DNA from: an uncultured Phycisphaerales bacterium
GTDB lineage: Bacteria > Planctomycetota > B15-G4 > CAYZWU01
NCBI GenBank assembly: GCA_964482235.1
Contig: CAYZWU010000028.1
Span: 6,645 to 70,644, forward strand
Direction: 5' to 3'
Length of the DNA stretch: 64,000 nt
Part shown: positions 643-64,000 of the stretch, one piece after another
How the letters are laid out: each line of letters opens with the position of its first letter
How positions within the stretch are numbered: the stretch's first letter is position 1
Notes under the pieces: generated by a model
Seen by the model: the letters and a program-made list of their open reading frames with translations, nothing else
What the model was told of the DNA's origin: nothing
Databases searched by the model: none
Program-made: the position numbers and the translations under genes

Positions 643-6504
<5,862 letters not shown>

Positions 6505-16835: not shown

Positions 16836-19805
16836 CTACTCCAAGCCGGAGACGATCCCCCAGTCCGCGCTCTCGATAAACCAATCGTGCGGAACGAGGG
16901 TGAAGTCCTTCTGACTGCTCCCTCCGTCGATGGAGCAGACCACCAGGTCAACGGCGGCGTTGTGGATCCTGCGGCAGTAGAGGAGGCTCTCCCCGTCAGG
17001 AGAGACGACGCAAGGCCACACCGCATTCCCCTGATGGCTTCGGATGACTTTGGCGGCCTCGGCGTTCCCGGACTCGGCGTCCAGATCCCAGCGTACAATC
17101 TCGTTTACGATGCCCCCTTCCGGCAACGAGCGGCGGCGCGTGAGATACAGTGCCTTTCCCCAAGGCTCCCAGACCAGGGGGAAGGCATCGGCACGGCGGA
17201 TCGGATCCTCGATCTCGAGCAGATTCGCCATGGAATCGATTCGCACCGATTGGCCCGTGGCGGCATCCCAGACAAAGGCTTCTGCCGAATCGGAGGAGGG
17301 ATCCACCGCTGTCACGGCGGCCAGCCTCGCCCCGTCCGGCGCCATGGAGATGTGGAAACAATCCGGCACCTTGCCCCCTTCGGACCAGAATCGGATCTCC
17401 CCATCCAGATCGAGGACACGTATCTCCTCGCTGCCGCAGGACCCCTTGAAGGAGAAGGCGATCGAATGGGCGTCCAGCCACCTCAGGAGGCGGCAGCCGG
17501 ACTCCCTCGCGAAACTGGTCAGCTTGCGGCGATCCTCACCGGCAATCGACATGACCCAGATCTGAAACGATCGGCCGTCGAAACGGGTGAAGGCGATCTT
17601 TCTCCCGTCAGGGGAAAGCGTCGCGCTTCCCATGTCCCCGTCAAGGTCGGCCGTAAGGTTGGAGGCGCTTCTATTCCCAGGAGTGAGAGCAAAGATGTCG
17701 CTTTCGTCCTGCTGGAACGGCTTGGCGGCAATGACTATTTTCTCTAGCCTGACGCGAGCCCAGTCGCCCCCGGTGATCGGTCCCATGGCGGAATAAATGG
17801 GAGTCAACCGCCGTGTCTCGAGATCCAGCCTGCAGAAGCCGACTCCTTCTGCATCGGCTTTGGTCAGGAGCAGAGACGAGCCATCCGTGGAAAGGTCGTT
17901 GATCCTGACCTCACACCCTGGTGCGAATTGATAAACCGTCTCGAAGGAAACGGCGCCCGGAGAAATGGGAAAAGACCTCGAGACGATGGCGAAACTCCTG
18001 CCCGTGATGGGCAAATCGCGCGAGGCGGGGCCGGGGGCCATGTTCCGACACCAGTAGAACCGACTGCCGTCTGCACTGCAGACAGGATGGTGGTCGGTAT
18101 GATTGTCGTCTCCCTCGGACAGCAGAGGTTTAACTTCAGAAGGAAGGCCGTCCAGGCCGAGACTCGCCAGGTAGACATCGTAGGTCGGCGACCAGGTTCC
18201 TTCCTGCGCTGACAGCACCATGAACGCTCTGTCCGGTGAAAACGCGAAAGTAGTGGGGCAGGCATCGGAGTCCGAGGGTTCTGACAGCAACAGCTTGGAC
18301 TCCTTCTCGCGGATCTTGATGAAACGGATCTCGGCACTGTCGCTATCAGGATTGTTCGTGAAGTAGATCGTCTCATCATCGAACCACTTCAGATCAAAGG
18401 GAATGCCATGATCCATGTTGCTACCGATCTGCTGCCTCGATGTCCCATCCGAGCACATAATATAGATGGCAGGTACTCCGGAGGAATCGCTGATGAAGGC
18501 CATCTTGGTGCCGTCGGGCGAAACCCTCGGGGAAACGGCATCACCGGGATATTTCGAGGTCAGATTGATGAGCCCCGTCCCGTCGGGATTCATGCTCAGG
18601 ATATCGTACTCTCCCAAGTCGTCCGTTACGGCCGAGAAGATAATCTTCTCCCCCACGACCTCGGTCAGGGGGACATCCGAAACGGCGGGGATCCGGGCTG
18701 CCTGCTTTCCGAAAATCAGCACGACCAGGATGGTTGCCGAAGCCGCAAGACAGAGGGCGGCCAAACCGATCAGGAGGCGTGCCCGCCCGGCACGCGACGG
18801 CATTCCGGCAACAGGCGCGAGAGCCTGCTCGAACTCTCCTGCCGAGAAAAAACGGCCGCCGGCATCGACGGACATGGCCCGAGTCACGGCATCCGTAAAA
18901 AGGGCCGGAAGTCCGGCGCATCGTTTCTCGAGAGGCACCGGCGCCCCTTCGAGCACCTTGCGCCGCAGCTCGTGGTAATCGTTCGCCTCGAAGGGGAAAT
19001 CGCCGGACACCATCCAGTAGAGAAGAACGCCCAGGGCGTAGATATCCACCCTTGGCTCCATCAGGCTTCCGGGGATGAACTGCTCTGGCGCCATGACCAG
19101 CGGCGTGCCCGTCATGCCGCGCCTTCTCTTCAGGTCGGCCGGGCCGATCGAGTGGGCCAGGCCGAAGTCGAGAAGCACGACCCGGCCCTCGTCGGTGATC
19201 ATCACGTTCGTCGGCTTGAGATCGCGGTGGATGAGCCCCTTCGAGTGAAGAAGGGCCAATGCGCGGCAGAGGCTGACGCCGATGCGAACCGCTTCTTCGA
19301 CCGGGAAAGGGCCTTCCTGATCGACGATCTCGGCCAGAGTCCGGCCTTCGACCTTCTCCAGGCAGAGCCGAAGGTCCTCGCCGTCCTGGTCAACGGAGAG
19401 CATCCTCACGATGTTGGGATGGTCGAGGGAGGCCAGGGTTCGGGCTTCCCGGATGAAACGGCTTCTGTCCTGCTCGGTGAGCGGCGTCTCGCGATCGAGC
19501 ACCTTCAGAGCCACTTCCCGGCCGAGGAGCCTGTCGACGGCGCCATAGACCGTGCTGTATGCACCCCGCCCCAGCTCGCCCTTGATCTCGAATCCGGTCT
19601 CGATAGTCGAGACCGACTCACCCGGTTCCGCGTCCAGAAAATCGCCGTCTTCGGCGTGGATGCGTTTCATCAAAGCGAGGGTACGGAACGCCGCCGCCTC
19701 GCGGGCCGTAATTTTTCCTGCCCTGCTGAGCTTCTCCCACTCGAGGGGCTCGCCCTCGTCGATCGCCCTGGCAATATTCTCGCGGAACCTGGCGTCACGC
19801 GGCAT
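16836..19805 (-). CDS. Membrane Ser/Thr protein kinase with two extracytoplasmic TolB/PD40-like beta-propellers
   Basis: LGRGAY, VALK, HRDLKPTN, DFGLA, MAPE and DIYALG motifs; one TM (LLIGLAALCLAASATILVVLIFG); repeated SPDG motifs. Start re-assigned to ATG 19805 (GGAG RBS, overlapping the sigma factor 3' end). Confidence 0.92.
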   Translation of the reverse strand: MPRDARFRENIARAIDEGEPLEWEKLSRAGKITAREAAAFRTLALMKRIHAEDGDFLDAEPGESVSTIETGFEIKGELGRGAYSTVYGAVDRLLGREVALKVLDRETPLTEQDRSRFIREARTLASLDHPNIVRMLSVDQDGEDLRLCLEKVEGRTLAEIVDQEGPFPVEEAVRIGVSLCRALALLHSKGLIHRDLKPTNVMITDEGRVVLLDFGLAHSIGPADLKRRRGMTGTPLVMAPEQFIPGSLMEPRVDIYALGVLLYWMVSGDFPFEANDYHELRRKVLEGAPVPLEKRCAGLPALFTDAVTRAMSVDAGGRFFSAGEFEQALAPVAGMPSRAGRARLLIGLAALCLAASATILVVLIFGKQAARIPAVSDVPLTEVVGEKIIFSAVTDDLGEYDILSMNPDGTGLINLTSKYPGDAVSPRVSPDGTKMAFISDSSGVPAIYIMCSDGTSRQQIGSNMDHGIPFDLKWFDDETIYFTNNPDSDSAEIRFIKIREKESKLLLSEPSDSDACPTTFAFSPDRAFMVLSAQEGTWSPTYDVYLASLGLDGLPSEVKPLLSEGDDNHTDHHPVCSADGSRFYWCRNMAPGPASRDLPITGRSFAIVSRSFPISPGAVSFETVYQFAPGCEVRINDLSTDGSSLLLTKADAEGVGFCRLDLETRRLTPIYSAMGPITGGDWARVRLEKIVIAAKPFQQDESDIFALTPGNRSASNLTADLDGDMGSATLSPDGRKIAFTRFDGRSFQIWVMSIAGEDRRKLTSFARESGCRLLRWLDAHSIAFSFKGSCGSEEIRVLDLDGEIRFWSEGGKVPDCFHISMAPDGARLAAVTAVDPSSDSAEAFVWDAATGQSVRIDSMANLLEIEDPIRRADAFPLVWEPWGKALYLTRRRSLPEGGIVNEIVRWDLDAESGNAEAAKVIRSHQGNAVWPCVVSPDGESLLYCRRIHNAAVDLVVCSIDGGSSQKDFTLVPHDWFIESADWGIVSGLE

Positions 19806-20385
19806 CTCCGGCCATCTCCCTCCCGACGATCTCCATCGTCCTGCGTACATCCATCCTTGCCGCATCGGGCGACGGGTACTCGCACTCCTTGGCAATGATC
19901 CCGTACTCGAGGCCGAGTTCGATCCGCATCAGGAGTGAGTACCGTCTCCTCTCGGGAAGATTCCCTATCACGGCCTCGAAAGCCTCGAACTGCTCCCGGT
20001 CGAGGAGCCCTTCCAGCGGCGTGGCATCTGGCGAGGCCGGGGCGCACCAAGTCTCCTGCGGCAGCCTCTGCCCGGTCACACCGGACGAAAACCGGCGCCA
20101 CACATCGGCAAGGTGGTTGAGGGCGATCCGGCGCAGGTAGGCCCAGAAGGAGCCGATCCCCCGGTATTCGAACCGGTCGAGATAGGGCAGCGCCTTGATG
20201 CAGACATCCTGGACGATGTCCTGGGTCTCGGAAAGACCGCGGGCCGCCACGGGCAGCCTGGCCCGCAGGAAGAGATCGAGCTGCCTCCTGTACCGCTGAA
20301 GCAGATCGCCGCGCGCCTCCTGATCGCCCGCTCGAATCCGGTCGAGAAGATCGGCCGTTTCGAGGAGGATGGCGGACGGGTACAT
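19795..20385 (-). CDS. ECF-family RNA polymerase sigma factor
   Basis: Region 2 (DIVQDVCIKAL...SFWAYLRRIALNHLAD) and region 4 (LPERRRYSLLMRIELGLEYGIIA). ATG at 20385, with an alternative TTG at 20403. Confidence 0.9.
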   Translation of the reverse strand: MYPSAILLETADLLDRIRAGDQEARGDLLQRYRRQLDLFLRARLPVAARGLSETQDIVQDVCIKALPYLDRFEYRGIGSFWAYLRRIALNHLADVWRRFSSGVTGQRLPQETWCAPASPDATPLEGLLDREQFEAFEAVIGNLPERRRYSLLMRIELGLEYGIIAKECEYPSPDAARMDVRRTMEIVGREMAGDAA

Positions 20386-51403: not shown

Positions 51404-52813
51404 TTGAACCCAGAATCATTTGGTCAGATCGAAGGTCTGTTCGACGCCCCGCTGGAGGTTGCTCCGCTTCTGGACCAGTTGCCCCTGGGCATTATGATCC
51501 TCAGCCTGGATCAAAAGATCCTGTTTCTGAACAGCGCCTTCGAGGCTTTGACCGGATTTGATCGCGATGAAGTTCATCATGTTCCCTGTTGCCATGTGCT
51601 CAGGACGGATATATGCAACGATCGTTGTCCCATTTTGAACACAGGCGACAGCGTCAAGCCGGCTCCGCAGACGGGGACGATTCTCATCAGCTCGCGCGAG
51701 AAGATCGACGTGCGCTTGACGGCAAGTGCGCTGCGCGACCGGAATGGGCGCATCATCGGATACATGGAAACGGTCGAGGATCTCGGGACGCATCACCAGA
51801 TCATGGATCATCAGCGCGATCTGCAAGGATTCAGCCAGATTGTGGGGCGTTCTCCGCCCATGCAGAAGCTGTTCAGTCTTGTTCCCGTCGTTGCCCAGAC
51901 CGATTCCTCGCTGCTCATCACCGGAGAGACGGGCACGGGCAAAGATATCCTGGCCGAGGCGATCCACGAAACATCGGACCGCAGCGACGGGCCTTTCATC
52001 AAGGTGAACTGCGGCGCGCTTCCCGAGACGCTGCTCGAGTCCGAGCTGTTCGGTCACAAGAAGGGCGCTTTCACCGGGGCGGAGAGCGACAAGATGGGGC
52101 GTGTACGCCTGGCTCATAACGGCACGCTCTACCTTACGGAGATCGGCGATCTCTCCCTCCCGCTCCAGGTCAAGCTGCTGACCTTTCTCGATGACAAGAT
52201 CGTTTACCCCCTGGGAGATGCCGATGGATATCACGTCGATGTGCGGATCATTGCAGCCACGCACCGCGATCTGATGCAGATGACCAGGGATAACGCCTTC
52301 CGTCAGGATCTGCTGTTCCGGCTGAATGTGGTTCGTTTTCATCTGCCGCCCCTGAGGGAGAGGGATGGAGATGTTCGCCTGCTCCTGGACCATTTCCTGA
52401 AGATCTTCTCCGTAAGGTTCGGCAAATCTCTCAAGGGATTTACTCGGACGGCGCAGGAGCTGCTGCTGAACTATGCCTACCCCGGAAATGTACGCGAGCT
52501 CAGAAATATCGTGGAATACTCAACCAGCATATGTCCCGTGGAGATGATCGGGCTGGAGCATCTGCCCGCCTACCTGGGAGAGCCGCTGCTCGATGTGGGC
52601 GGCGAAACAGGCGACGTGTCCCACGTCGAGGAGCCGGTGAGCTGGTCCTCCAAGGAAGCGGCGCCGGGGATGAACTGGGCCGCCATCGAGCGTCAGCTCA
52701 TTGTCGACACCTTGGTCAAGGCCAAGGGGCACAGAAGCAGGGCCGCGGAGATGCTGGGCTGGGGGCGTTCCACGCTATGGCGGAAGATGAAGTTCCACGG
52801 ACTCGAATCGTGA
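51404..52813 (+). CDS. PAS-domain sigma54-dependent enhancer-binding protein (OrpR-like)
   Basis: PAS with CCHVLRTDICNDRC, Walker A GETGTGKD, ESELFGHKKGAFTGA, FRQDLLFRLNV, YPGNVREL, and a Fis-type HTH (GWGRSTLWRK). TTG start. Confidence 0.93.
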   Translation: MNPESFGQIEGLFDAPLEVAPLLDQLPLGIMILSLDQKILFLNSAFEALTGFDRDEVHHVPCCHVLRTDICNDRCPILNTGDSVKPAPQTGTILISSREKIDVRLTASALRDRNGRIIGYMETVEDLGTHHQIMDHQRDLQGFSQIVGRSPPMQKLFSLVPVVAQTDSSLLITGETGTGKDILAEAIHETSDRSDGPFIKVNCGALPETLLESELFGHKKGAFTGAESDKMGRVRLAHNGTLYLTEIGDLSLPLQVKLLTFLDDKIVYPLGDADGYHVDVRIIAATHRDLMQMTRDNAFRQDLLFRLNVVRFHLPPLRERDGDVRLLLDHFLKIFSVRFGKSLKGFTRTAQELLLNYAYPGNVRELRNIVEYSTSICPVEMIGLEHLPAYLGEPLLDVGGETGDVSHVEEPVSWSSKEAAPGMNWAAIERQLIVDTLVKAKGHRSRAAEMLGWGRSTLWRKMKFHGLES

Positions 52814-52838
52814 AATGGCGTTGATGAAGGGTACCGAA

Positions 52839-53186
52839 ATGACTCGAAAGATAATGATCGTCCTGCGTGAAAACGAGGTGGCCCCGCGCTTCGACCTGAC
52901 CGCCGAGGTCTACATCGCCGTGCTGGACGCTGATGGAGCGATCGAGCACGACAAGACCATGGTCCTGGCGCACTCGTCTGCGGACGATCTATGTCAGCTG
53001 ATCTTGAGCGAGGGCGTCGACATGCTGGTCTGCAACGGAATCGAGCAGGAGTTCTTCGAGTATCTCACATGGAAGAAGGTGCATGTACTTGACTCGGTCA
53101 TGGGGCCCTGGGAGCGTGCATTGGAAAAAGTCCGGAACAACGAATTGCAGTCGGGGTCGATCCTTTTCGACCGTCCGGAAAGGTAA
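52839..53186 (+). CDS. NifB/NifX (MTH1175-like) family small protein
   Basis: VAPRFD...VDMLVCNGI...V.GP.E.AL pattern of the dinitrogenase FeMo-cofactor-biosynthesis-like fold. Start ATG 52839. Confidence 0.75.
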   Translation: MTRKIMIVLRENEVAPRFDLTAEVYIAVLDADGAIEHDKTMVLAHSSADDLCQLILSEGVDMLVCNGIEQEFFEYLTWKKVHVLDSVMGPWERALEKVRNNELQSGSILFDRPER

Positions 53187-53190
53187 GACC

Positions 53191-54924
53191 ATGTTCAGGA
53201 GAATCAGAAAACGGCTCCGTTCACTGCTCGATGTTTCGCCGGTTTTTTCCGATCAGCCCATGTCTCCCCGTCGCTATGGTATGCTCCGTCGCACAATGAC
53301 CATCATCATGGTCGTGGCCACGCTGCTGCCGCTGACCATGATGGCCGCGATCAACCACTATCAATACCAGAAGGCGCTGAGCCGGGAAACGATCGAGCCC
53401 TTGAAGAACCTGGTCAACAAGACCCAGCATTCGTTCGAGCTTTTCTTGACGGAGCGGCTCTCTGCCGTCAGTTTCATTGCGGCAGCCTATACCTACCATG
53501 AGCTGGCCGATCAGAAAACGCTGACATTCATCTTTCATGCCATGAAGGAAAAGTTCGGCGGCTTCGTGGACCTGGGCATGATCGACGCCTCGGGATTGCA
53601 AGTGAGCTACGTCGGGCCTTACGATATCGAGGGGAAGCAGTACAAGGATCAGGAATGGTTCAAGGAGGTGCTGGTGAGGGGCGAGCATATCAGCGACGTC
53701 TTCATGGGGCACCGCAAGTTTCCTCACTTCGTGATCGCCGTACAGAACGAAAATGAAGAAGGGGAAAAGTGTATCCTTCGCGCAACCATCGATACGGAGC
53801 TGTTCAACCAGCTCATCGCCTCCATGGGACTCGATGCAGCGAGCGATGCCTTCGTGTTGAATCGCGACGGCGTTTTTCAGACTACATCCAAGTTCTACGG
53901 CAAGGTGCTTGAAAAGTTCCCGATGTCCATGCCGCCGCTGAGCTATTCGGCCAACGTGCTGGAGATGGAGGATTCCGAGGGCAGTGATATCCTGCTGGCC
54001 TACTGTGACTTCTCTTCACCTTCCTTCGTCCTGATGCTGGTGAAGCCCCAGAGCACTGTGCATGGATCATGGTATACGCTGAAAGGCGAGCTGCTCTTCA
54101 TCTTCATCGGCGGCATTGTCGTGATATTCCTTGTCGTGTTCAAGATCACCGATCTGCTGGTGAAGCGGATCGAGGAGTCGGATAGGAGGCGGGAGATCAC
54201 ATATCACCAGACCGAGCATACGAACAAGCTGGCCTCCATCGGCAGACTCGCCGCCGGCATTGCCCATGAAATCAACAATCCCCTGGCCATCATAAACGAG
54301 AAGTCAGGTCTCATGGAGGATCTGATCCAGATCAAGTTCGACCTTGAAAGGAAGGGACGGCTCCTCGAGCTCACCGGATCGATCCGGCATTCCGTGGAGC
54401 GTTGCAGCACCATCACCCACCGCTTGCTTGGATTCGCCCGCAGAATGGATGCCAAGCTCGAGACCATTAACCTACGAGAGGTTTTCATGGAGGTGTTCGG
54501 CTTTCTCGAGAAGGAAGCGGCACACCGCAATATCACCGTGCACCTGCAGCTCGATGAAGCGCTGCCCGATATCTATTCGGACCACGGCCAGCTGCAGCAG
54601 GTTTTTCTCAACATCCTCAACAACGCCTTTTCCGCGGTTGACGATGGCGGTATTGTCACGGTCACCAGCTTCGAACATGATGCGGATCTTGTCGGCATTT
54701 CCATTGCCGATGACGGGGTGGGCATGTCGGAGGAGACCATGAAGCACGTTTTCGATCCGTTCTTCTCGACGCGCGGCACGCACGGCACCGGGCTCGGCCT
54801 CTCCATCACCTATGGCATTGTGAACAAGCTGGGCGGCAAGATCGACGTGCAAAGCAAGGAAGATGAAGGTACCACTTTTACTGTGTACTTACCCAAGAAG
54901 AGCTATCTAGGCAGGGACGTGTAA
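53191..54924 (+). CDS. Membrane sensor histidine kinase 1 (Cache-like periplasmic domain)
   Basis: Two TMs, H-box [11 protein letters not shown]-box QVFLNILNNA, DDGVG, FDPFF and GTGLGLSI. Start ATG 53191. Confidence 0.95.
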   Translation: MFRRIRKRLRSLLDVSPVFSDQPMSPRRYGMLRRTMTIIMVVATLLPLTMMAAINHYQYQKALSRETIEPLKNLVNKTQHSFELFLTERLSAVSFIAAAYTYHELADQKTLTFIFHAMKEKFGGFVDLGMIDASGLQVSYVGPYDIEGKQYKDQEWFKEVLVRGEHISDVFMGHRKFPHFVIAVQNENEEGEKCILRATIDTELFNQLIASMGLDAASDAFVLNRDGVFQTTSKFYGKVLEKFPMSMPPLSYSANVLEMEDSEGSDILLAYCDFSSPSFVLMLVKPQSTVHGSWYTLKGELLFIFIGGIVVIFLVVFKITDLLVKRIEESDRRREITYHQTEHTNKLASIGRLAAGIAHEINNPLAIINEKSGLMEDLIQIKFDLERKGRLLELTGSIRHSVERCSTITHRLLGFARRMDAKLETINLREVFMEVFGFLEKEAAHRNITVHLQLDEALPDIYSDHGQLQQVFLNILNNAFSAVDDGGIVTVTSFEHDADLVGISIADDGVGMSEETMKHVFDPFFSTRGTHGTGLGLSITYGIVNKLGGKIDVQSKEDEGTTFTVYLPKKSYLGRDV

Positions 54925-54925
54925 T

Positions 54926-55309
54926 ATGGAAAACCTCAAGGTGCTCCTAGTAGATGATGAGGAAGAGTTCATACTCACGCTGGCTGAGAGGCTCGAGCTG
55001 AGAGAGATCAAGGCCCTGACCGCCGTCAACGGAGAGCAGGCGCTTCAGGTCGTTGAGAGGGAGAAACCGCCCGTTGTGGTTCTCGACGTCAAGATGCCGG
55101 GTATTGGCGGAATGGAAGTGCTTCAAAATATAAAGGGCAGACATCCTGAGATTCAGATTATTCTGCTCACCGGTCACGGCTCCACCAAGGATGGGATCAA
55201 AGGGATGCGCCTGGGCGCATTCGACTACATCATGAAGCCGGTGAAGATCGAAGAGCTGATAGACAAGATGCGAGAAGCGTATGAAGCGTTCAGGGCATCG
55301 AAGAAATGA
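54926..55309 (+). CDS. Single-domain response regulator
   Basis: LLVDDE, VLDVKMPG, LTGHG and KP motifs; no output domain. Confidence 0.95.
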   Translation: MENLKVLLVDDEEEFILTLAERLELREIKALTAVNGEQALQVVEREKPPVVVLDVKMPGIGGMEVLQNIKGRHPEIQIILLTGHGSTKDGIKGMRLGAFDYIMKPVKIEELIDKMREAYEAFRASKK

Positions 55310-55555
55310 TCGGATTATGGAGCCCGGCGTTGTCAGGCACGATCCACGGCTCAGGCGTTTCGGGATCACTCCTGGCAGGCGCATGGGATGCACCTGCTTG
55401 AAAGGGCCTGAAAGCAGCCCTGATAAGATGTTTTCATCTCATGTCTTGATATTCACACCCTAAGACAGCTCGCTTTCATTGTTTCTATATGTTTCATATT
55501 GCCCTCATTGCTGTTGCGCATTGTTTCAAATCAAGACCCGTTACTAATCGCAATA

Positions 55556-55575
55556 AGTTGTAATATATTGCAACT
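55556..55575. promoter_or_regulatory. 20-bp imperfect palindrome, candidate operator
   Basis: AGTTGTAATATATTGCAACT lies 16 bp upstream of the sigma54 -24 box. Confidence 0.45.
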
Positions 55576-55591
55576 AAACGCTTAGTAAACT

Positions 55592-55607
55592 TGGCCCGCC
55601 CTTTGCT
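55592..55607 (+). promoter_or_regulatory. sigma54 (-24/-12) promoter
   Basis: TGGCCCGCCCTTTGCT has GG and GC exactly 12 nt apart, matching TGGCACG-N4-TTGC(A/T). It lies about 60 bp before ATG 55666, near an EBP gene. Confidence 0.75.
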
Positions 55608-55665
55608 TGATCCTTCTCTATATATGAATCCAAAACACTTCCTTCACAGTGAGAGGAACTCAATA

Positions 55666-56523
55666 ATGACAAAAGACAAACTGAAGATCCTACTTGTAGA
55701 TGATGAAACCGAGTTCGTCGACAGCCTATCCGAGCGGCTGGGTTTGCGCGGCATGAAAACCGACGTTGCCTATGACGGCGAGCAGGCGCTGAAGGCCGTG
55801 GAGAAGAGCGCGCCCGATGCCATGGTTCTCGACCTACGCATGCCCGGCATGGACGGCATAGAGGTGCTCGAAAAAGTCAAAAAAGATTACCCCAATATCC
55901 GGGTTATTGTCCTGACCGGTCACGGCACGGATGAAGACGAGGCAAAGGCATTGAAGCTCGGGGCATCGGTTTTCATGAAGAAGCCGGTGGATATCGACCA
56001 GCTCGTGAAGATTCTTCGCAAGGAGAGGATGAAGGTCCTCCTCGTTGATGATGAGAAGGAGTTCGTGGATAGCCTGTCTGAACGGCTCGAACTGCGGAAC
56101 GTGGAGGCCGGCATTGCCTACGATGGGGAGCAGGCGATCAAGGCGGTTGACGAAGAGGAGCCCGATGTTCTCGTTCTCGACCTTCGCATGCCCGGCATCG
56201 ACGGCATCGAAGTCCTTCGCAGGGTCAAGAAGAGCCACCCCGAAATGCCGGTCGTGATCCTCACCGGCCATGGGACGGAAGACGACGAAAAAAAAGCCCG
56301 CCGCATGGGCGCCTCGGCATACCTGAAGAAACCGGTTGACGTCAATCAGCTCACCGGTGTTCTGCAGAAAGTGGTGGGTCGATTCAAGAAATCCAAGAAG
56401 GTTGTGGACACCATGTTGATGGCCGCGGCCCTTGCGCAGGCGGGCGAGACGGAGTATGCCCGCGAAACCCTTGAAGAGCTGGAAGAAGACAAGAATAAAG
56501 ACAGGAAGAAAGATAAGAAATAG
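55666..56523 (+). CDS. Tandem double-receiver response regulator with a short C-terminal helical tail
   Basis: Two near-identical REC domains (LLVDDE.EFVDSLSERL, VLDLRMPG, LTGHG, KKPV). GAGAGGA RBS then ATG 55666. Confidence 0.93.
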   Translation: MTKDKLKILLVDDETEFVDSLSERLGLRGMKTDVAYDGEQALKAVEKSAPDAMVLDLRMPGMDGIEVLEKVKKDYPNIRVIVLTGHGTDEDEAKALKLGASVFMKKPVDIDQLVKILRKERMKVLLVDDEKEFVDSLSERLELRNVEAGIAYDGEQAIKAVDEEEPDVLVLDLRMPGIDGIEVLRRVKKSHPEMPVVILTGHGTEDDEKKARRMGASAYLKKPVDVNQLTGVLQKVVGRFKKSKKVVDTMLMAAALAQAGETEYARETLEELEEDKNKDRKKDKK

Positions 56524-56554
56524 CGTCTCCGACGCCTTCCGAGGAGCCGTAGAT

Positions 56555-58249
56555 ATCAATACTCCCACGAGCCGTCAATACAGCACCCTGACCCGGAGCC
56601 TTTTCCTGATCAGCTTTTTTCTGCCTTTTGTTCCCCTCGTTATTCTGGCGTGCGCTCTTCTGTACGAGTGTCACGCTACGTTGGAAGAGGAAGCTTACAA
56701 CGACCACCGGAGAAAGGTCTGGGAATGTGCGAATCATGTCGAGAGGCGCCTGGAAGATCAAATCCGGACCATGCAGTGGATATCCGGGACGTTCGGCTTC
56801 GAGGCACTGTGTGATGAGGCACGGCTTAAGCAAGCTCTGGTGCTGCTCCAATCCCGGTACGGGTTCGAATCCGTCGAGCTTGGCGTTTTCGACGAGCGGA
56901 ACCGTAGGATCGCCTATGCAGGATCGGCTGCGTCCGGCGGCGTATCGAATATCAACGCGCAAAACCGTGGGGCAATGGTTGGAAAGCTGTTCTTCAATGA
57001 GCAGGATGTCGCTGCTTATACACTGTCTGTTCAAGAAGGTTCCCACGATAGCTCCTGGATGCTGCGCGCAGTCATCGACGCCCGCGCCCTGGATGAGATC
57101 GTCCCTTCCGCGCATGCCGGCGAGAGGGGCGCAGTCTTTCTCCTCCAAAAGGGCCGGACCTTTCCCGTGGCGTTGTCCGTCGCGGATCGCTTGACAGAAG
57201 ATCGCCTGTCTGCGGACCGCCTGCCAGACGAAGTCGTGGCGAACCTGTCAAGGCATGCGGAGACGGGCAATGACGAACCTCCCGTAATCGAATGCGTGGA
57301 CCGCTCAGGGCTGGAAAGGCTCTATGCCGCCGGCTCGATCCAGGGAACGGATTGGTGGATTATTCTGCAGCAGGATGCATCAGCAGCGTATTCGCAATTC
57401 TCAAGAATAAGGACAGTTGCGGTTGTCCTGCTGCTGGCAATCGGGTTCCTGCTCGCGGCCAACGCTTTCAGCCTTTCGAAGAAGCTGGTACGTAAAATCG
57501 AAGAGGCGGACAAGAAGAAACAGAGGAGGATCGAGCAGATGTACCAGACCTCCAAGCTGGCATCGATCGGGGAGCTGGCCGCGGGCATTGCCCATGAGAT
57601 CAACAACCCGGTGGCCATCATGGTCGAGGAGGCCGGTTGGATCAACGATCTGCTCGAGGAGGAAGAGTTCGCCAGAGGCAAGAACCTGAACGAATTCGGA
57701 AGGGCCTTGGATCAGATCAAATCCCAGGGAGAACGATGCAAGGCCATTACGCAGAAGCTACTGAGCTTCGCCCGGGAATCCGGATTTCGTATGGAAAAGG
57801 TGAGGCTGATCGAGCTGATCGGGGACGTTCTCGACATCATGGCCAAGAGGTCTTTCTTCGAGAAGGTTCGCATCGATTTGAACGTGCAGAAGGACCTTCC
57901 CGAGCTGAGCCTGCCCCGCATCGAGCTGCAGCAGGTTCTCGTCAACCTGATCAACAACGCCGTCGATGCCATGAAAGGGAAGGAAGGCACCCTCTTCCTG
58001 TCTGCCGGGCTCGAGCGGGATCATCTGTGGATCGAGGTGGCCGACGACGGCTGCGGCATTCCGGAGCAGCACCTCCAGCGTATCTTCGATCCGTTTTTCA
58101 CCACCAAGCCGGTGGGGCAAGGTACGGGCCTTGGGCTCTCCATCTGTTACGGCATCATCAAGAAGATGGGAGGCAGCATCCAGGTGGAAAACCTCGTTGA
58201 TCGGGGAGCTTCCTTTCGGATCCGAATTCCGCGGGAGGCCCTGGTTTGA
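56555..58249 (+). CDS. Membrane sensor histidine kinase 2 (start codon uncertain)
   Basis: Two TMs, H-box [36 protein letters not shown] and GTGLGLSI. The best RBS (GAGGAG 56541-56546) precedes an in-frame ATC at 56555. Confidence 0.9.
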
Positions 58250-58353: not shown

Positions 58354-58773
58354 ATGAACGTTTTGCTCGTTGATGATGAAGCCCCTTTCATCGACACGGT
58401 CACCAAGCGCCTGGTGAAACGGGGGATCCGCGTCTTCACCGCCTTGAGCGGAGACGAGGCACTCGGCCTTCTCGCAGGCGATTCGGGCATCGAGATCGTT
58501 GTTCTCGACATCAGGATGCCGGGCTTGAGCGGCCACGATACGCTGGCGGAGATCAAGCGTCGGTTCCCATCCGTGGAGGTGATCATCTTGACGGGCCACT
58601 CCACGGTGGAGTCAGCCATCAAGACGAAACGGCTGGGCGCCTTCGACTACCTCGGCAAACCATGTGACATAGAGGAGCTCATCACGAAGATCCAGGAAGC
58701 CTTCGGCCGGGTCCGGCATCGAGAAGAGGCTGACCGGGACGACGCGTCCCGGAAAGGAGGTCAAGATGAATGA
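58354..58773 (+). CDS. Single-domain response regulator
   Basis: LLVDDE, VLDIRMPG, LTGHS and KP motifs. Confidence 0.93.
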   Translation: MNVLLVDDEAPFIDTVTKRLVKRGIRVFTALSGDEALGLLAGDSGIEIVVLDIRMPGLSGHDTLAEIKRRFPSVEVIILTGHSTVESAIKTKRLGAFDYLGKPCDIEELITKIQEAFGRVRHREEADRDDASRKGGQDE

Positions 58774-59200
58774 CATACGCGTACTGCTCGTCGATGACGA
58801 GACGCAATACATGGAAACGCTGATGAAGCGGCTGAAGAAGCGCCGTATCGATATTCGCGGCGTGGACCGCGGGGAGAAGGCGCTGGAAACGCTCTCGCGC
58901 CACGAGGTGGACGTCGTGGTCCTTGATGTGAAGATGCCGGGCATGGATGGCATCGAGGTGCTGAAACGGATCAAGTCGCAATATCCCTTGATCGAAGTCA
59001 TCATGCTCACCGGGCATGCCAGCATGGACGTGGCGATGCAGGGGATGCAGCTCGGAGCCTTCGACTACCTCGTGAAGCCAACGGACGCCGACGAGCTGCT
59101 GTACAAGATCCAGGACGCAATCCAGCACAAAACCATCGAAGAAGCAAAGCAACAAGAATCGCAAGAAATAACTGAGCCGGAATCCGGGGATGAACCTTAA
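58766..59200 (+). CDS. Single-domain response regulator
   Basis: LLVDDE, VLDVKMPG, LTGHAS and KP motifs; overlaps the previous gene by 8 bp. Confidence 0.93.
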   Translation: MNDIRVLLVDDETQYMETLMKRLKKRRIDIRGVDRGEKALETLSRHEVDVVVLDVKMPGMDGIEVLKRIKSQYPLIEVIMLTGHASMDVAMQGMQLGAFDYLVKPTDADELLYKIQDAIQHKTIEEAKQQESQEITEPESGDEP

Positions 59201-59258: not shown

Positions 59259-60545
59259 ATGAACTTTTTCAGACAGTGGGGAGAATTCATGATGATGGGT
59301 GCGAGGGCCCATGCGAAGTGGGAGATCAATGTCTCCAACACGATTGTCAGAAGCCGGAAGCGCATGATGATCCTCTGGTTGCTGATCTTGCCCATCGTGC
59401 TTGGCAGCTTCGCCTTTGCCGCCCCCCTCAGCGAGGCGCTGCCCGAATTCCTTGGCGGCAAAAAGGCGTACAGCCCGGCGTTCTTCACGGGCGGGATCTT
59501 CATCGCATCGATCCTTATCGGACTCTGCGCGGGGCTGATCACCGGCTGCATCGGCGCGGGCGGCGGTTTCGTCATTGCCCCGGCCCTGATGAGCGCGGGA
59601 ATCAAGGGGATCCTGGCCGTGGGCACCGACCTTTTCCATATCTTCGCCAAGGCGATCATGGGAAGCGTCATCCACAGGAAGCTGGGCAATGTGTCCGTAA
59701 TCCTGGCCGTGATCTTTCTGATCGGAGCGATTGTGGGCGCCACGGGCGGCGGCGTGCTCAACCGGGTGCTCTACGAGATCAATCCCGTGCTGAGCGATGC
59801 TTTCATCACGTCGATCTACGTGCTCATGCTGGGTCTTCTGGGAACGTACGCGCTTTTCGATTATCTGAAATCGAGGAAACAGCCCGATGCCGGCGGCGCG
59901 CACGGCGGCAAGGACGAAGGTGCCGACCTGGGCAACCTGCCCAGGAAGCTCCAGTCCATCAACATCCCCCCCATGGTGACCTTCGACAAGGGGATCACGC
60001 CGGGCGGCCGCAAGATCTCCTGGATCTTCCTCGTGCTCAGCGGAGGCCTCGTGGGTTTCATGGCAGCCATCATGGGCGTGGGCGGCGGCTTTCTGACCTT
60101 CCCCATATTCGTGTACATCATGGGCGTTTCGTCGCTCACAACGGTGGGAACGGATATCTTTCAGATCGTGTTCACCGCCGGATATGCCGCGATCAGCCAG
60201 TACGCGATCTTCGGTTTCATCTTCTACACGCTGGCCATGGGCATGTTGCTGGGCTCGCTGCTGGGTATCCAGATCGGTGCCATGGTGACCAAATGCGTCA
60301 AAGGCACAACGATTCGTGGTTTCTACGCCATGGCCGTGCTGGCCGGTTTTGTCAACCGGATCTTCGCCCTTCCGGGCAAGCTGACCGAAATGGAGGTCAT
60401 GTCCCTGTCCAAGGGCACCGTGAACGTGCTGGACGCCATCGGGGTGTGGGCGTTCTTCCTGGTCATAGGAATCTTTGCCGTATGGGTGATCGGAACTTTT
60501 TTCAAGAACCTCTCGCTGCTCAAGGGAGAGGAGGTGAACTCATGA
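59259..60545 (+). CDS. TauE/SafE (TSUP) family permease
   Basis: GLITGCIGAGGGF, AVGTDLFH, AAIMGVGGGFL and TVGTD motifs; multiple TMs with an internal two-fold repeat. Confidence 0.9.
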   Translation: MNFFRQWGEFMMMGARAHAKWEINVSNTIVRSRKRMMILWLLILPIVLGSFAFAAPLSEALPEFLGGKKAYSPAFFTGGIFIASILIGLCAGLITGCIGAGGGFVIAPALMSAGIKGILAVGTDLFHIFAKAIMGSVIHRKLGNVSVILAVIFLIGAIVGATGGGVLNRVLYEINPVLSDAFITSIYVLMLGLLGTYALFDYLKSRKQPDAGGAHGGKDEGADLGNLPRKLQSINIPPMVTFDKGITPGGRKISWIFLVLSGGLVGFMAAIMGVGGGFLTFPIFVYIMGVSSLTTVGTDIFQIVFTAGYAAISQYAIFGFIFYTLAMGMLLGSLLGIQIGAMVTKCVKGTTIRGFYAMAVLAGFVNRIFALPGKLTEMEVMSLSKGTVNVLDAIGVWAFFLVIGIFAVWVIGTFFKNLSLLKGEEVNS

Positions 60546-61228
60546 TTGCGAACAAGAAACAGTTCATGACCGGCACCCTCCTGCTGGCCGCCTTCACCGT
60601 GGTGCTCGTATTCATCTTTCTGCCGATCGTCGACGGCCAGAATGCGCTGGACTACATGGACTCGCTGTTCAATTCCATCTCCAAGGATTCGGCCTACTAC
60701 ATCGACACCCTCAAGGAGGAATCGAAGGAGCTGGCCGGCACCAGCATCACTGTCGAGCTTGTATTCGAGGACCCTTCCACAGCCGCCGAGGTCGAGCCGT
60801 TATTCACGAAAAACGGGGCCATAGCCGGCGTGAAAGACGGGAAGCTGGAATTCACCGGCGATCTGGGTGTCATCATGGAAGGATGTTTGAATGATGCGGA
60901 CGAGATGTTCGCCAATCACGGCGAGGCGCTGATCGAAAAGTACGGATGCGAAGAAAAGCAAGCTATGTACGGCTGGTGGGTGGCGCTCAAGGCTCTGGAC
61001 AAAGCGCTCAAGCGTCAGGAGAAGTTCGCTGAATCCAAGTTTGTCACAACAGTGATCAAGAAGGGCGTGGAGTGTTCCTACAACTTCTACGGGATCGAGC
61101 CGCAGAAGATAACCGAAAAGATGGTTCTCGTCCTGGGTTCCCTTGTCTTCTATGTGATCTATACCATGTGGTACGGTTTTGCCATCATGTTCATGTTCGA
61201 AGGCTGGGGATTGAAGCTGGAGCACTGA
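60542..61228 (+). CDS. Hypothetical membrane protein (N- and C-terminal TMs, periplasmic middle), coupled to the TSUP gene
   Basis: ATG 60542 overlaps the TSUP stop (ATGA). This is the real 3' part of track ORF 59276..61228 (MIANKKQF...GWGLKLEH). Confidence 0.85.
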   Translation: MIANKKQFMTGTLLLAAFTVVLVFIFLPIVDGQNALDYMDSLFNSISKDSAYYIDTLKEESKELAGTSITVELVFEDPSTAAEVEPLFTKNGAIAGVKDGKLEFTGDLGVIMEGCLNDADEMFANHGEALIEKYGCEEKQAMYGWWVALKALDKALKRQEKFAESKFVTTVIKKGVECSYNFYGIEPQKITEKMVLVLGSLVFYVIYTMWYGFAIMFMFEGWGLKLEH

Positions 61229-61356
61229 GCTTGACCGGACAAGGCGGAGCCGAGTTCAAAAGTTCCGCGGGACAGGGGTCCAATCCCCCGGATCGGAGGA
61301 CTTGGCTTCACCATCGTCACGGGCCTGATTCCGCCGAGAGATGCGACTCGATTCGT

Positions 61357-61384
61357 GGGGTTGTTCCCTTCGGGGAACAACCCC
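61357..61384. repeat. Perfect 12-bp stem with a C(UUCG)G tetraloop
   Basis: GGGGTTGTTCCC-TTCG-GGGAACAACCCC, intergenic, with no U-tract. Confidence 0.7.
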
Positions 61385-61502
61385 GGCCAGGTTGCGTTTT
61401 CCCGCTGGGATATTGCCGAAATCTGTTATTTCTATGGGAGAGACGGCATCATCATCGCAGCTGCGGTGAGGGACGTCCACCACTTTGAATCGAGGTGATC
61501 AA

Positions 61503-64000
61503 TTGAGCAGCTGGCGCAAATGGCTGAGCAGGCTGCTTTCGAGAAACCGGGAGCAGGACAAACTCGATGCGGCCCGGCTTCGCCTCGACTTCAAGGCGCG
61601 TTACCAGAGTTTCAAGCTTCTCCTCAGCGCCAACCACAGGTCCCTCGAGCTCATGGCCGAGATCGAGCGCGTGTTATCGGGAATCCGGCCTTTCGGCATG
61701 ACCTTCGTCCGGTCGCGCTGTACGCGGATTTCCACCCTGGTTTTTCAGATCGTCAAGCATCTCGATGGGCTGGCCCCGGGCCGGTATGCGGAGCTATTCG
61801 AGAAATTCGAATCGATCCACGATGAAATCAAATCCCACCTGCAGATCCGGAAAGATGTTGTTGAAGGGCCCCTGACCGTCCCTCTCGAGGAGATCGACAG
61901 GGATATGACCGATGGTGTGGGCCAAAAGATGGCGAGCCTGGCCGAAGTCAAGAACCGCTTCGACGTGAAAGTGCCCGGCGGTTTCGTGATAACGGCGACC
62001 GCCTACCATCGCTTCATGGAGCACGGCGGGCTGCAAATGGAGATCAATCGGCGTCTCCAGGCGGCGGATGTTTCGAAAAGGGATGAGCTGTTCGATCTGA
62101 GCGCGGGGATTCAGCGTCTGATTATCGCGTCGGAGATTCCCATTGAACTTGAGCGCGAGATCGAGGCGCAGGTGGCCTGTCTCGATGCGGCCGGGGAATC
62201 GGGAGGCGGACCACTCTCCGTGGCCATGCGCAGCAGCGCACTGGGCGAGGACCGCGCGGGCGTTTCCTTTGCCGGTCAGTACAGGACGCTGCTCAACGTG
62301 GGCAGGGAGAACGTCCTCCATGCCTACAAGGAGATCGTGGCAGGAAAATACGGCCTCGCCGCCATGACGTACCGGCTGAACCGGGGCATTGTGGATGAAG
62401 AGGCGGCCATGTGCGTCGGCTGTCTTCAAATGATCGATGTCCTCTCGGGCGGCGTGATGTATTCCCGGAATCCGATCGACATCCGTAACGAGTCGATTCT
62501 GATCAATTCGGTCTGGGGGCTCCCCAAGCCGGTCGTGGACGGTCGGATCGAGGCGGACCTTTTCGTGCTCGATCGCAACGATCCCCCCGACATCACGGTC
62601 AGGGAAATCGCCATCAAGGAATACAAGTTCGTATCTTTCCTTGAGGAGGGTGTCGGCCGGATGGTCGTTACGGGCGAGGAGCGGAACCTTCCTTCGCTCA
62701 CAGACGAGCAGGCAAGGGAACTTGCGCGCATGGGCATGAAGCTCGAGGCGTACTACGGCACCCCGCAAGATATTGAATGGGCTATCGCCCGTGGCGGCGA
62801 GATCGTGCTTCTGCAGTGCCGGCCGCTGCACGCGCAGGTGACGGATCCGGAAATCGAAGGGGATTCGGGGAATGGTGGAGATCTAGAAAACGGCCTGGTT
62901 TCGGGAAGCGACCGAGATTCACGGACCACCAGGAAATGGCAGGTAGGCGAGCCGCCCGGACCCGTCCGGCTTCGAGGTGGTGTCACGGCAAGTCCCGGGG
63001 CCGCGGCCGGGCCCGTTTTCAAAGTCGAGAAGAGCGCGGACAGCCTTCGGTTTCCACAGGGCGCCGTGCTGGTGACGACCCAGTCGCTGCCGGCGTGGGC
63101 CTCGCTCGTCGGAAACGCGGTTGCCGTGGTCAGCGAGGTCGGCGGGGTTACAGGCCATCTGGCCAGTGTGGCACGCGAGTTCGGCATCCCGGCGCTCTTC
63201 GGCGCCCGGGGAGCGATGAAACGGCTCGTCAACGGCGAGATCGTCACCGTCGATGCCGACGGAATGCATGTTTTCGACGGCCGCATCGAGGCGCTCGTCG
63301 ACGAGGAACGACAGCCCCGGAATCTCATGGAAGGGAGTGCCGTGTTCGAAACGTTGAAGTCCGTGGCGCAATGCATAACTCCGCTGAACCTTCTCGATCC
63401 CGATGCGCCCGGATTCAGGCCCTTCGGTTGCGGAACGCTTCACGATATCACGCGCTTCTGCCATGAAAAGGCAGTGGCAGAGATGTTCCGTTTCGGCAAG
63501 GACCACCGTTTTCCGGAGCGCTCGAGCAAGCAGCTGTACTGCGATGCGCCCATGCAGTGGTGGGTCCTCAACCTCGATGACGGATTCACCGAAGAAGTCG
63601 AGGGCAGGTATGTCGGGCTGGACAATATCGTGTCCATCCCCATGCTCGCCATCTGGGAAGGTGTTGCCGCCATCCCCTGGGAGGGCCCACCGCCCATTGA
63701 CAGGAAGGGGCTCATGTCGGTCATGTTCGAAGCCACGAGAAATACGGCACTCACCCCCGGTCTTCGTACGCGGTACGCCAACCGGAACTACTTCATGATC
63801 TCCAGGAACTATTGCAGCTTGAGTTCGCGGTTGGGATTCCACTTTTCAACGATCGAAACACTGGTGAGCGACCGCCCGCGGGAAAACTATATCAGCTTCC
63901 AGTTCAAAGGCGGTGCCGCGGACTTCGATCGCCGCCTGAAAAGGGTACGTTTTGTCGGGGACATTCTCGAGAACTACGGTTTCCGCGTTGAAGTCAAGGA
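61503..64000 (+). CDS. PEP synthase/pyruvate-water-dikinase-like protein (ATP-grasp + phospho-His domain + uncharacterised C-terminal domain), 3'-truncated; absent from the ORF track
   Basis: GAGGTG RBS then TTG 61503. Manual translation gives GQKMASLAE..VPGGFVIT, MRSSALGED..SFAGQY, PQDIEW, GGVTGHLASVAREFGIP (His at 63156-63158), then ITPLNLLDP..LHDITRFCHEKAV..FKGGAAD. Confidence 0.88.
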   Translation, partial: MSSWRKWLSRLLSRNREQDKLDAARLRLDFKARYQSFKLLLSANHRSLELMAEIERVLSGIRPFGMTFVRSRCTRISTLVFQIVKHLDGLAPGRYAELFEKFESIHDEIKSHLQIRKDVVEGPLTVPLEEIDRDMTDGVGQKMASLAEVKNRFDVKVPGGFVITATAYHRFMEHGGLQMEINRRLQAADVSKRDELFDLSAGIQRLIIASEIPIELEREIEAQVACLDAAGESGGGPLSVAMRSSALGEDRAGVSFAGQYRTLLNVGRENVLHAYKEIVAGKYGLAAMTYRLNRGIVDEEAAMCVGCLQMIDVLSGGVMYSRNPIDIRNESILINSVWGLPKPVVDGRIEADLFVLDRNDPPDITVREIAIKEYKFVSFLEEGVGRMVVTGEERNLPSLTDEQARELARMGMKLEAYYGTPQDIEWAIARGGEIVLLQCRPLHAQVTDPEIEGDSGNGGDLENGLVSGSDRDSRTTRKWQVGEPPGPVRLRGGVTASPGAAAGPVFKVEKSADSLRFPQGAVLVTTQSLPAWASLVGNAVAVVSEVGGVTGHLASVAREFGIPALFGARGAMKRLVNGEIVTVDADGMHVFDGRIEALVDEERQPRNLMEGSAVFETLKSVAQCITPLNLLDPDAPGFRPFGCGTLHDITRFCHEKAVAEMFRFGKDHRFPERSSKQLYCDAPMQWWVLNLDDGFTEEVEGRYVGLDNIVSIPMLAIWEGVAAIPWEGPPPIDRKGLMSVMFEATRNTALTPGLRTRYANRNYFMISRNYCSLSSRLGFHFSTIETLVSDRPRENYISFQFKGGAADFDRRLKRVRFVGDILENYGFRVEVK

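Follow-up and report, generated by a model that had tools for sequence, protein, structure and literature searches.

A dikinase-like protein family with an orphan C-terminal domain in the position of the pyruvate-binding barrel, encoded beside anion permease and receiver genes

Introduction

What does an enzyme built like a dikinase phosphorylate when the domain that would bind pyruvate is missing? The question is raised by a gene at the end of a 64,000-nucleotide stretch of contig CAYZWU010000028.1 (hereafter the window; G+C content 62%) from an uncultured Phycisphaerales bacterium. The gene (61503..64000, forward strand) is predicted to encode a protein whose central part resembles phosphoenolpyruvate (PEP) synthase, and it follows genes for receiver proteins, a TauE/SafE (TSUP) permease and a small membrane protein. 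The analysis described here indicates that the product is, in all likelihood, not an enzyme of the PEP-synthase barrel type but a histidine phosphotransferase of the dikinase type with a new third domain. It forms part of a large branch of the PEP-utilising (dikinase) superfamily which awaits characterisation and whose members are routinely misnamed 'pyruvate, water dikinase'.

Results and Discussion

Extent of the gene and its product

The gene occupies a single frame of 832 codons in the window (codons 1-832 of 900), begins with a TTG codon at position 61503 preceded by a GGTGA ribosome-binding site, and runs off the end of the window. Its translation contains every motif quoted in a preliminary description of the sequence, namely FKARYQSFKLLLSAN, ITPLNLLDP, LHDITRFCHEKAV, RLGFHFS and FKGGAAD. 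The full-length protein was recovered from a protein database (P0001; 900 amino acids, with 100% identity to the window open reading frame (ORF) over 832 amino acids), and on its contig (L001) the gene stops 150 nucleotides short of the contig end. The part of the protein outside the window therefore amounts to 68 residues, belonging to a third domain of approximately 295 residues in all. A canonical barrel downstream of the window edge, which the preliminary description had named as the finding that would overturn its proposal, is ruled out, since too few residues remain to form one.

A homologue search, in which the 8000 candidates sharing most words were scored, returned more than 3000 homologues at E≤1e-10 (a lower bound), the best 120 of which are 841-906 amino acids long and 56-66% identical to the query; the number and similar length of these homologues indicate that the ORF is real.

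An intact ATP-grasp domain and phospho-histidine domain

The domain order was found to be N-terminal extension, ATP-grasp domain, linker, phospho-histidine domain and C-terminal domain in a single chain, which is the layout of the dikinase superfamily. Residues 125-445 (61875..62837) make up the ATP-grasp nucleotide-binding domain (PF01326), in which the motifs RSSALGED, SFAGQ and QDIEW are kept; the Pfam PPDK_N match covers residues 139-445 (3.2e-86), and a comparison of 96 homologues (27-52% identity) shows conservation of RSSxxxED, FAGQ and DIEW. The inter-domain linker which follows (residues 446-490; 62838..62972) carries an insertion of approximately 45 amino acids rich in Gly, Ser and Asp; this insertion is peculiar to the window protein, being absent from most homologues, and accounts for the length of 900 rather than approximately 865 amino acids. 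The swivelling phospho-histidine domain (PF00391; residues 491-595; 62973..63287) was recognised by the Pfam PEP-utilizers model at residues 517-586 (7.5e-18) and carries the predicted catalytic histidine, His552, within GGVTGHLASVAREFGIPA. The His552 codon lies at 63156-63158; the residue aligns with the TSH-motif histidine of the structures 9dae and 2ols and is kept in 86 of the 96 homologues. Both domains had been described as intact from inspection of the sequence, and the profile matches and conserved motifs bear this out.

The N-terminal extension of some 120 residues noted in the preliminary description is also present. Residues 1-124 (61503..61874) precede the PEP-synthase-like region, alignments to PEP synthases starting only at approximately residue 125, and are family-specific and conserved across the family (consensus F..RY..FK.LL.AN..ALE.MA). 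No Pfam, NCBIfam or PDB sequence match was obtained for these residues, nor did a profile of the extension reveal a PDB relative.

Similarity to known enzymes ends at the phospho-histidine domain. A Pfam scan of the 832-residue protein gave nothing beyond PF01326 and PF00391 at E≤1, the barrel family PEP-utilizers_C included, and the NCBIfam PEP-synthase models aligned over only the first 474 of 798 positions, with scores (301.4 bits against a cut-off of 598 for NF005057, 285.3 against 739.75 bits for TIGR01418) below the equivalog cut-off in both cases. PEP synthases in the PDB (9dae, 2ols, 8a8e) and pyruvate phosphate dikinases (PPDKs) align from approximately residue 125 to residues 587-617 and no further. 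The NCBIfam models for rifampin phosphotransferase (RPH), PigC/RedH and PRK06241 match the ATP-grasp part only; that for RPH does so at 5.7e-63, over model positions 4-312 only and with 213.5 bits against a cut-off of 999.

A C-terminal domain of unrecognised fold

The C-terminal domain (residues ~600-900, of which 600-832 are visible in the window at 63300..64000, forward strand) had no Pfam, NCBIfam or PDB-sequence match, either by its own sequence or by a profile of close homologues. An initial AlphaFold (AF2) model based on 18 close homologues reached a pLDDT of only 53.7, and its Foldseek matches were discarded as noise. The final alignment of 114 sequences, comprising 95 full-length representatives of 50%-identity clusters and 18 closer homologues, gave a model with a pLDDT of 90.4 and a pTM of 0.81. 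The predicted fold is alpha plus antiparallel beta, with the topology H-H-E-E-E-H-H-E-E-E-E-H-E-E-H-H-H: two long helices, a three-stranded sheet, two helices, and a six-stranded antiparallel sheet against three long helices.

Such a topology is incompatible with a (beta/alpha)8 barrel, and on this ground, together with the lack of any profile or fold match, a cryptic or divergent barrel was rejected. The Foldseek comparison suggested in the preliminary description was carried out with the final model and found no significant relative in the PDB (best E 0.042, query TM ≤0.21) or in BFVD (best E 0.013, query TM-score ≤0.22 overall); chains of PEP synthase, PPDK, Enzyme I and rifampin phosphotransferase were not among the matches. 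On the predicted structure, the position of the barrel is occupied by an unrelated, family-specific domain, in agreement with the view that no PEP-synthase barrel is present in the C-terminal region, and the protein is probably not a PEP synthase.

A conserved polar constellation in the C-terminal domain

The C-terminal domain is the most conserved part of the protein, with 70% identity to the window protein among 52 close orthologues, compared to 57% for the ATP-grasp domain and 62% for the phospho-histidine domain, and a set of its polar residues is kept at ≥90% across 96 representatives of 27-52% identity. Cys643, His647, Asp648, Arg651, His654 and Glu655 are all conserved and share one helix face in the model. 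Arg776, His780 and Asn795 are conserved as well, as is the Gly803-Gly804-Ala-Ala806 loop, which joins a strand to the helix bearing the conserved Arg810, Arg811 and Arg814; to these are added Asp834 and, past the window edge, Arg863, Gln864 and Asp866. The identical constellation was invariant in a separate alignment of one distant clade. A strand, a Gly-rich loop and an Arg-rich helix together form a classic anion or phosphate cradle, and the presence of this element favours an anionic acceptor. From its conservation and modelled geometry, the domain looks like a functional or active site.

Size, distribution and naming of the family

A profile of the C-terminal domain was searched against 1.84 billion cluster representatives and matched 1358 clusters at 50% identity, 667 of them at E≤1e-30. 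Among the 150 best matches the domain starts at approximately residue 545-615 in proteins of approximately 865 amino acids, while shorter entries look like fragments; this constant position indicates that the N-terminal extension and the C-terminal domain travel together. The family motifs HDI(T)RF(C/A)HE, SRLG(F/Y)HF, FKGGAAD..RR..R and HTRQLDM lie at approximately residues 560-870, and all but the last are found in the window ORF, HTRQLDM being located in the 68 residues past the window edge.

The family is encoded in at least 587 GTDB species genomes, nearly all of them metagenome-assembled genomes of Desulfobacterota, with carriers among the Desulfobacteraceae, Syntrophobacteraceae, Desulfatiglandaceae and Desulfomonile and in the cultured Desulfosarcina widdelii PP31. 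A near-identical sequence was detected in marine metagenome runs, and one run from a hydrothermal vent matched weakly, at 6% of sampled words; no RNA-seq run was found to contain the gene. In the source databases the proteins go under the names 'pyruvate, water dikinase', 'PEP/pyruvate-binding domain-containing protein' or 'PEP-utilizing enzyme'. Thousands of entries named pyruvate, water dikinase or PEP-utilising enzyme feed gluconeogenesis calls for sulfate reducers, and a gluconeogenic reading also occurs in at least one proteomics paper; the evidence presented here is that the family has no pyruvate site. In the literature, neither the architecture of the family nor the pairing of TauE with a dikinase was found to have been characterised.

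A permease and receiver cassette in the window and its clade

In the clade of the window protein, the dikinase-like gene stands last in a cassette with the order (sensor kinase), CheY-like receiver(s), TauE permease, 228-amino acid protein and dikinase-like gene. This order is repeated on annotated contigs with orthologues of 57-63% identity and is also kept by a representative of 45% identity. In the window, all members are on the forward strand. The sensor histidine kinase (HisKA and HATPase_c domains; 56432..58249) has an uncertain exact start, and its positional counterparts in related loci have a sensor domain of the dCache_1 type. It is followed by two single-domain receivers, the one at 58354..58773 and an NtrC-like receiver of a type designated REC2 (58766..59200), in which the acidic pocket, the phospho-acceptor Asp, the Thr and the Lys are conserved; a REC2-type orthologue, 50-62% identical and with the pocket kept, directly precedes TauE in nearly all related loci. 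The permease itself (59259..60545; 428 amino acids) matches PF01925 at 8.6e-37. The start of the gene for the 228-amino acid membrane protein (60542..61228) overlaps the TauE stop codon (ATGA); the protein has hydrophobic helices at its N- and C-terminus and a central portion of approximately 165 amino acids with three Cys, and no Pfam or NCBIfam match was found for it. A 650-amino acid ORF with a GTG start (59276-61228), also without a Pfam match, was rejected as a frame artefact over TauE, its last 228 codons (60542-61228) corresponding to the real gene.

Related loci were scored using phmmer profiles of the window proteins (85 loci, of which 52 have ≥7 kb of upstream sequence). Within 7 kb upstream of the dikinase-like gene, TauE was present in 51 of the 52, as was a CheY-like receiver, while the 228-amino acid protein was present in 48 and a kinase in 37. 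Neither TauE nor the 228-amino acid protein was found downstream in any of the 52, and downstream receivers (27/52) and kinases (22/52) showed a high background. A DASS (Na+/sulfate-dicarboxylate) permease directly follows the dikinase-like gene in 14 of 68 loci. In two of the Syntrophobacterales loci without an adjacent upstream TauE, the dikinase-like gene is followed without a gap by that for a cytoplasmic kinase of GAF-HisKA-HATPase type, which begins at its stop codon or overlaps it (L048, 9917-11179; L064, 6906-8210).

The dikinase-like gene of the window is separated from the 228-amino acid gene by a spacer of 274 nucleotides (61229-61502), the corresponding distance in related loci being 9-262 nucleotides. 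The spacer contains a GC-rich hairpin with a perfect 13-bp stem and a UUCG loop (61356..61385, forward strand), to which a further, outer stem of 11 bp is added (-36.3 kcal/mol, z = -5.5). A promoter and terminator scan of the spacer was empty, the hairpin not being called as a terminator because no T-run follows it. Rfam returned nothing across the whole window, and the spacer was accordingly taken to contain no riboswitch.

Partners in distant clades

Metagenome data were scanned for more distant members, and 80 loci were kept, with C-terminal domains mostly 38-55% identical to the seed; their neighbours were clustered and annotated with Pfam. Two-component proteins accompany the gene in 41 of these loci, TauE in 18 and tandem paralogues in 14, while proteins with CBS domains are directly upstream in 12 and DASS permeases are present in nine. 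TauE or DASS occurs in 27 of the 80, and operons of the form DASS-CBS-CBS-gene recur. An adjacent receiver was found in only approximately 8 of the 80 loci. In two other distant representatives a lone receiver directly precedes the gene, TauE and the 228-amino acid gene being absent. One member of 30% identity (L086/L087, 8001-10538) is accompanied by a GntR/FCD regulator, LrgA/LrgB, a short-chain dehydrogenase, a GlcD-like FAD oxidase and a DctPQ TRAP transporter, a context suggestive of activity on an organic acid in some clades. Taken together with the window clade, these neighbourhoods point to a family theme of secondary anion permeases with CBS and two-component regulators, the individual partners varying.

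Tandem or nearby paralogues of the dikinase-like gene, two to three copies per locus, were observed at L094, L109, L119, L145, L154 and L168. Loci with paralogues are sometimes flanked by several TauE genes, four of them in a row at L130.

Links to proposed sulfate uptake and regulation

TSUP and DASS proteins are candidate sulfate carriers of sulfate reducers (PMC5840216). DASS proteins, Cache-type sensor kinases, response regulators and CBS proteins have been proposed to form a cluster for sulfate sensing and uptake control in Desulfosarcina variabilis and 25 other sulfate reducers (PMC11887813); the dikinase-like gene is not mentioned in the text or supplements of that report, nor TauE in its text. 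In Dissulfuribacter thermophilus, a 'PEP synthase' (DITHS69_1988), a 'transmembrane protein co-occurring with TauE' (DITHS69_1989) and TauE (DITHS69_1990) are adjacent, and all three were more abundant when thiosulfate was being disproportionated (by log2 fold changes of 3.40, 1.79 and 1.56, respectively); the authors read the first as gluconeogenic (PMC13490349).

The family is thus a large mis-annotated one with a third domain of unrecognised fold, found at a locus relevant to the handling of an anion, probably sulfate. It is widespread in Desulfobacterota of marine sediments and is linked to TauE and DASS permeases, to CBS proteins and to Cache-type kinases of the kinds proposed for sulfate-uptake control. 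As the sensing, import and budgeting of sulfate in sulfate reducers is an open question, a predicted ATP-consuming histidine-relay enzyme at such a locus provides a testable lead.

Proposed reaction and acceptor

The odds are about even that the protein is a histidine-relay phosphotransferase which uses dikinase chemistry with a new acceptor site, is tied to an anion permease and is controlled by a receiver. The intact motifs and homology suggest that the ATP-grasp domain would bind ATP and pass the beta-phosphoryl group to His552, with release of AMP and Pi. As would be expected from the same domain order in PEP synthase and PPDK, the phospho-histidine domain could then swing on its two linkers to the C-terminal domain. 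There, the FKGGAAD..RR..R element and the helix face bearing Cys, His, Asp, Arg, His and Glu may bind an anionic acceptor and catalyse phosphoryl transfer. The acceptor would be a small anion, or a metabolite of anionic character, that is handled by the permease encoded alongside, i.e. TauE with its 228-amino acid partner in the window and DASS with CBS proteins elsewhere. The adjacent CheY-like receiver, fed by the sensor kinase of the cassette, probably acts as a switch for the enzyme or the permease and not as the acceptor, since a cognate kinase is usually alongside and receiver adjacency is not family-wide.

That the acceptor is a small molecule linked to the permease is held somewhat more tentatively, at a little under even chances. 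A small anionic acceptor is favoured because clades with different protein partners, or with none, share one and the same polar site. A probable periplasmic location of the soluble part of the 228-amino acid protein, suggested by the positive-inside rule and its three Cys, would place that part beyond the reach of the dikinase-like enzyme, which likewise counts in favour of a small anion. The foremost candidate is sulfate or a sulfur oxyanion related to it, as TauE and DASS have both been proposed as sulfate carriers of sulfate reducers. The more specific proposal, that the enzyme is the ATP-driven phosphoryl donor of a transport-coupled system which traps or activates sulfate or a sulfur oxyanion delivered by TauE or DASS, is a long shot; if true, it would represent group translocation at the expense of ATP, or sulfate activation by a second route beside ATP sulfurylase, performed by a domain of new fold.

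The preliminary description had proposed a phosphotransferase whose acceptor would be either the TSUP substrate or the output-less receivers, the latter by His-to-Asp transfer. The domain part of this proposal stands, while the transfer itself is the most economical reading by analogy with PEP synthase, PPDK and rifampin phosphotransferase. The neighbourhood lends support to both candidate acceptors (TauE and a receiver each in 51 of 52 cassettes), and His-to-Asp transfer is the weaker of the two.

Several points weigh against the mechanism favoured here. Phosphorylated sulfate or sulfite species are, to our knowledge, not established metabolites. The case for an acceptor site consists solely of sequence conservation and a predicted fold, the description of that fold as orphan is relative to the PDB and BFVD only, and no biochemical data on any family member were found in the literature. 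Approximately two thirds of the distant-clade loci have no adjacent permease, and the neighbourhood fits regulation of a permease as well as it fits an enzyme acting on a transported solute. The tight linkage to a receiver, in 51 of 52 cassettes and in distant loci with a receiver only, fits a protein acceptor equally well. The Dissulfuribacter trio mirrors the cassette at the level of annotation only, and the adjacency argument depends on the locus tag in Table 2 being right: A0A1B9F8F1 is tagged DITHS69_1988 there and DITHS69_1161 in the text (PMC13490349).

Alternative explanations

It is unlikely, though several observations fit, that the protein is a non-canonical histidine kinase whose phospho-histidine donates to the Asp of the adjacent receiver, the C-terminal domain serving for docking or sensing. 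The receiver that accompanies 51 of 52 cassettes is orthologous and has an intact phospho-acceptor pocket, two distant branches have a lone receiver immediately upstream in the absence of TauE and 228-amino acid genes, 15 of 52 cassettes have no kinase within 7 kb upstream, and there is a precedent in VadK of Mycobacterium tuberculosis, a PPDK-derived autophosphorylating regulatory kinase (PMC13400623). However, a canonical HisKA/HATPase kinase is present in 37 of the 52 cassettes, that of the window included, and the polar constellation of the C-terminal domain is unchanged in distant loci, although only some 8 of the 80 have an adjacent receiver. A docking domain would, moreover, have no need of approximately 20 near-invariant Cys, His, Asp, Arg and Gly-loop residues, and a signalling route that yields AMP and Pi would consume two ATP equivalents.

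Quite improbable, in turn, is a phosphorylation-dependent regulator which gates TauE or DASS without phosphorylating the solute, as an ATP-driven analogue of the Enzyme I/EIIA pair of the nitrogen phosphotransferase system (PTS-Ntr), and in which the enzyme or its phosphorylated C-terminal domain (e.g. on Cys643 or His780) binds the permease. The conserved Cys beside Arg residues would suit such a role, being reminiscent of phospho-Cys carriers. The gene also recurs with two unrelated permease families, with CBS regulators and with two-component systems, and lies in or next to the proposed sulfate-uptake regulatory cluster (PMC11887813). Against this, there is no evidence of interaction, the partners vary between clades while the site is invariant, and many loci have no nearby permease.

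Finally, a genuine PEP synthase or 2-oxo-acid dikinase with a non-homologous pyruvate-binding domain, for which the database name would be right, is highly improbable: the domain order is as in PpsA, conserved Cys and acid/base residues could stand in for the proton-donor Cys that the PEP-synthase barrel has, a distant member has carboxylate carriers of the LrgAB type, a GlcD-like FAD oxidase and a GntR/FCD regulator as its neighbours, and the Dissulfuribacter authors favoured a gluconeogenic role, but the barrel and its motifs are wholly absent, the scores fall far under the equivalog cut-offs (301 bits for a threshold of 598, and 285 for one of 740), and the last position in an operon of receiver, TauE and membrane protein, kept in approximately 50 of 52 genomes, is not the one expected for a housekeeping enzyme of gluconeogenesis.

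Comparison with characterised systems

PpsA (EC 2.7.9.2; TIGR01418/NF005057; PDB 2ols, 9dae) is the best sequence match to the window protein (4.8e-54 to 1.2e-89) and shares the order of ATP-grasp and phospho-histidine domains as well as the catalytic-His and nucleotide-site motifs. The window protein differs in having an alpha plus beta domain, by prediction, instead of the C-terminal PEP/pyruvate TIM barrel, in its additional N-terminal extension of 124 amino acids, in scoring approximately half of the curated cut-offs, and in a context of transport and signalling rather than central metabolism. PPDK (EC 2.7.9.1; PDB 1dik, 1vbg) shares the logic of three stations, i.e. a nucleotide domain, a swivelling histidine and an acceptor domain; its matches are weak, confined to the end of the ATP-grasp domain and the phospho-histidine domain, and much weaker than those of PEP synthase, and the window protein again lacks the barrel.

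PTS Enzyme I and Enzyme I-Ntr have a mobile phospho-histidine domain of the same Pfam family and are functionally coupled to membrane permeases, and EI-Ntr bears an N-terminal sensor domain. Enzyme I, which begins with an HPr-binding domain, is driven by PEP through a barrel and has no ATP-grasp domain, whereas the window protein has an ATP-grasp domain and no barrel; matches to Enzyme I were marginal and restricted to the phospho-histidine region (E 0.00026-0.3 overall, 0.05-0.3 for PDB sequences). VadK (Rv1127c) is not known to have a third domain, whereas the window family has a conserved third domain of approximately 295 amino acids and an N-terminal extension and is therefore not a barrel-less autokinase of that type. 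VadK does illustrate how a PPDK-derived protein has moved out of PEP metabolism to become a histidine-autophosphorylating regulator (PMC13400623).

Rifampin phosphotransferase (RPH, NF041857) and the flavonoid and PigC/RedH-type enzymes offer a precedent for the combination of ATP-grasp and phospho-histidine domains with an acceptor domain other than the barrel (PMC4844700). In RPH the acceptor domain lies between the ATP-grasp domain and a C-terminal phospho-histidine domain, whereas in the window protein the phospho-histidine domain is central and the new domain C-terminal. The split aromatic dikinases (phenylphosphate synthase, HpeHI and MarK) phosphorylate acceptors other than pyruvate (PMC12167813, PMC12624787) and are multi-subunit enzymes of catabolic contexts; no sequence or fold relation of their acceptor parts to the C-terminal domain turned up, no direct comparison having been made. 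The window family would add an acceptor domain without a detectable structural relative to a superfamily known for its modular re-use of ATP-grasp and phospho-histidine domains.

Other features of the window

A second signalling block lies just upstream of the cassette (51404-56523). It opens with a PAS/sigma-54 activator (51404-52813) and a protein with a NifX/NifB-like FeMo-cofactor-binding domain (52815-53186). These are followed by a kinase that matches dCache_1 weakly (53083-54924), a single receiver (54926-55309) and a further protein in which there are two receiver domains (55591-56523). Near the other end of the window, an ORF of 1953 amino acids on the reverse strand (643-6504) has two sets of UvrA interaction and DNA-binding domains with ABC ATPase modules, and looks like a tandem-duplicated or fused UvrA-like protein of approximately twice the usual UvrA length. 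Also on the reverse strand (16836-19895) is a gene for a Ser/Thr protein kinase of 1019 amino acids fused to PD40 (WD40-like beta-propeller) repeats.

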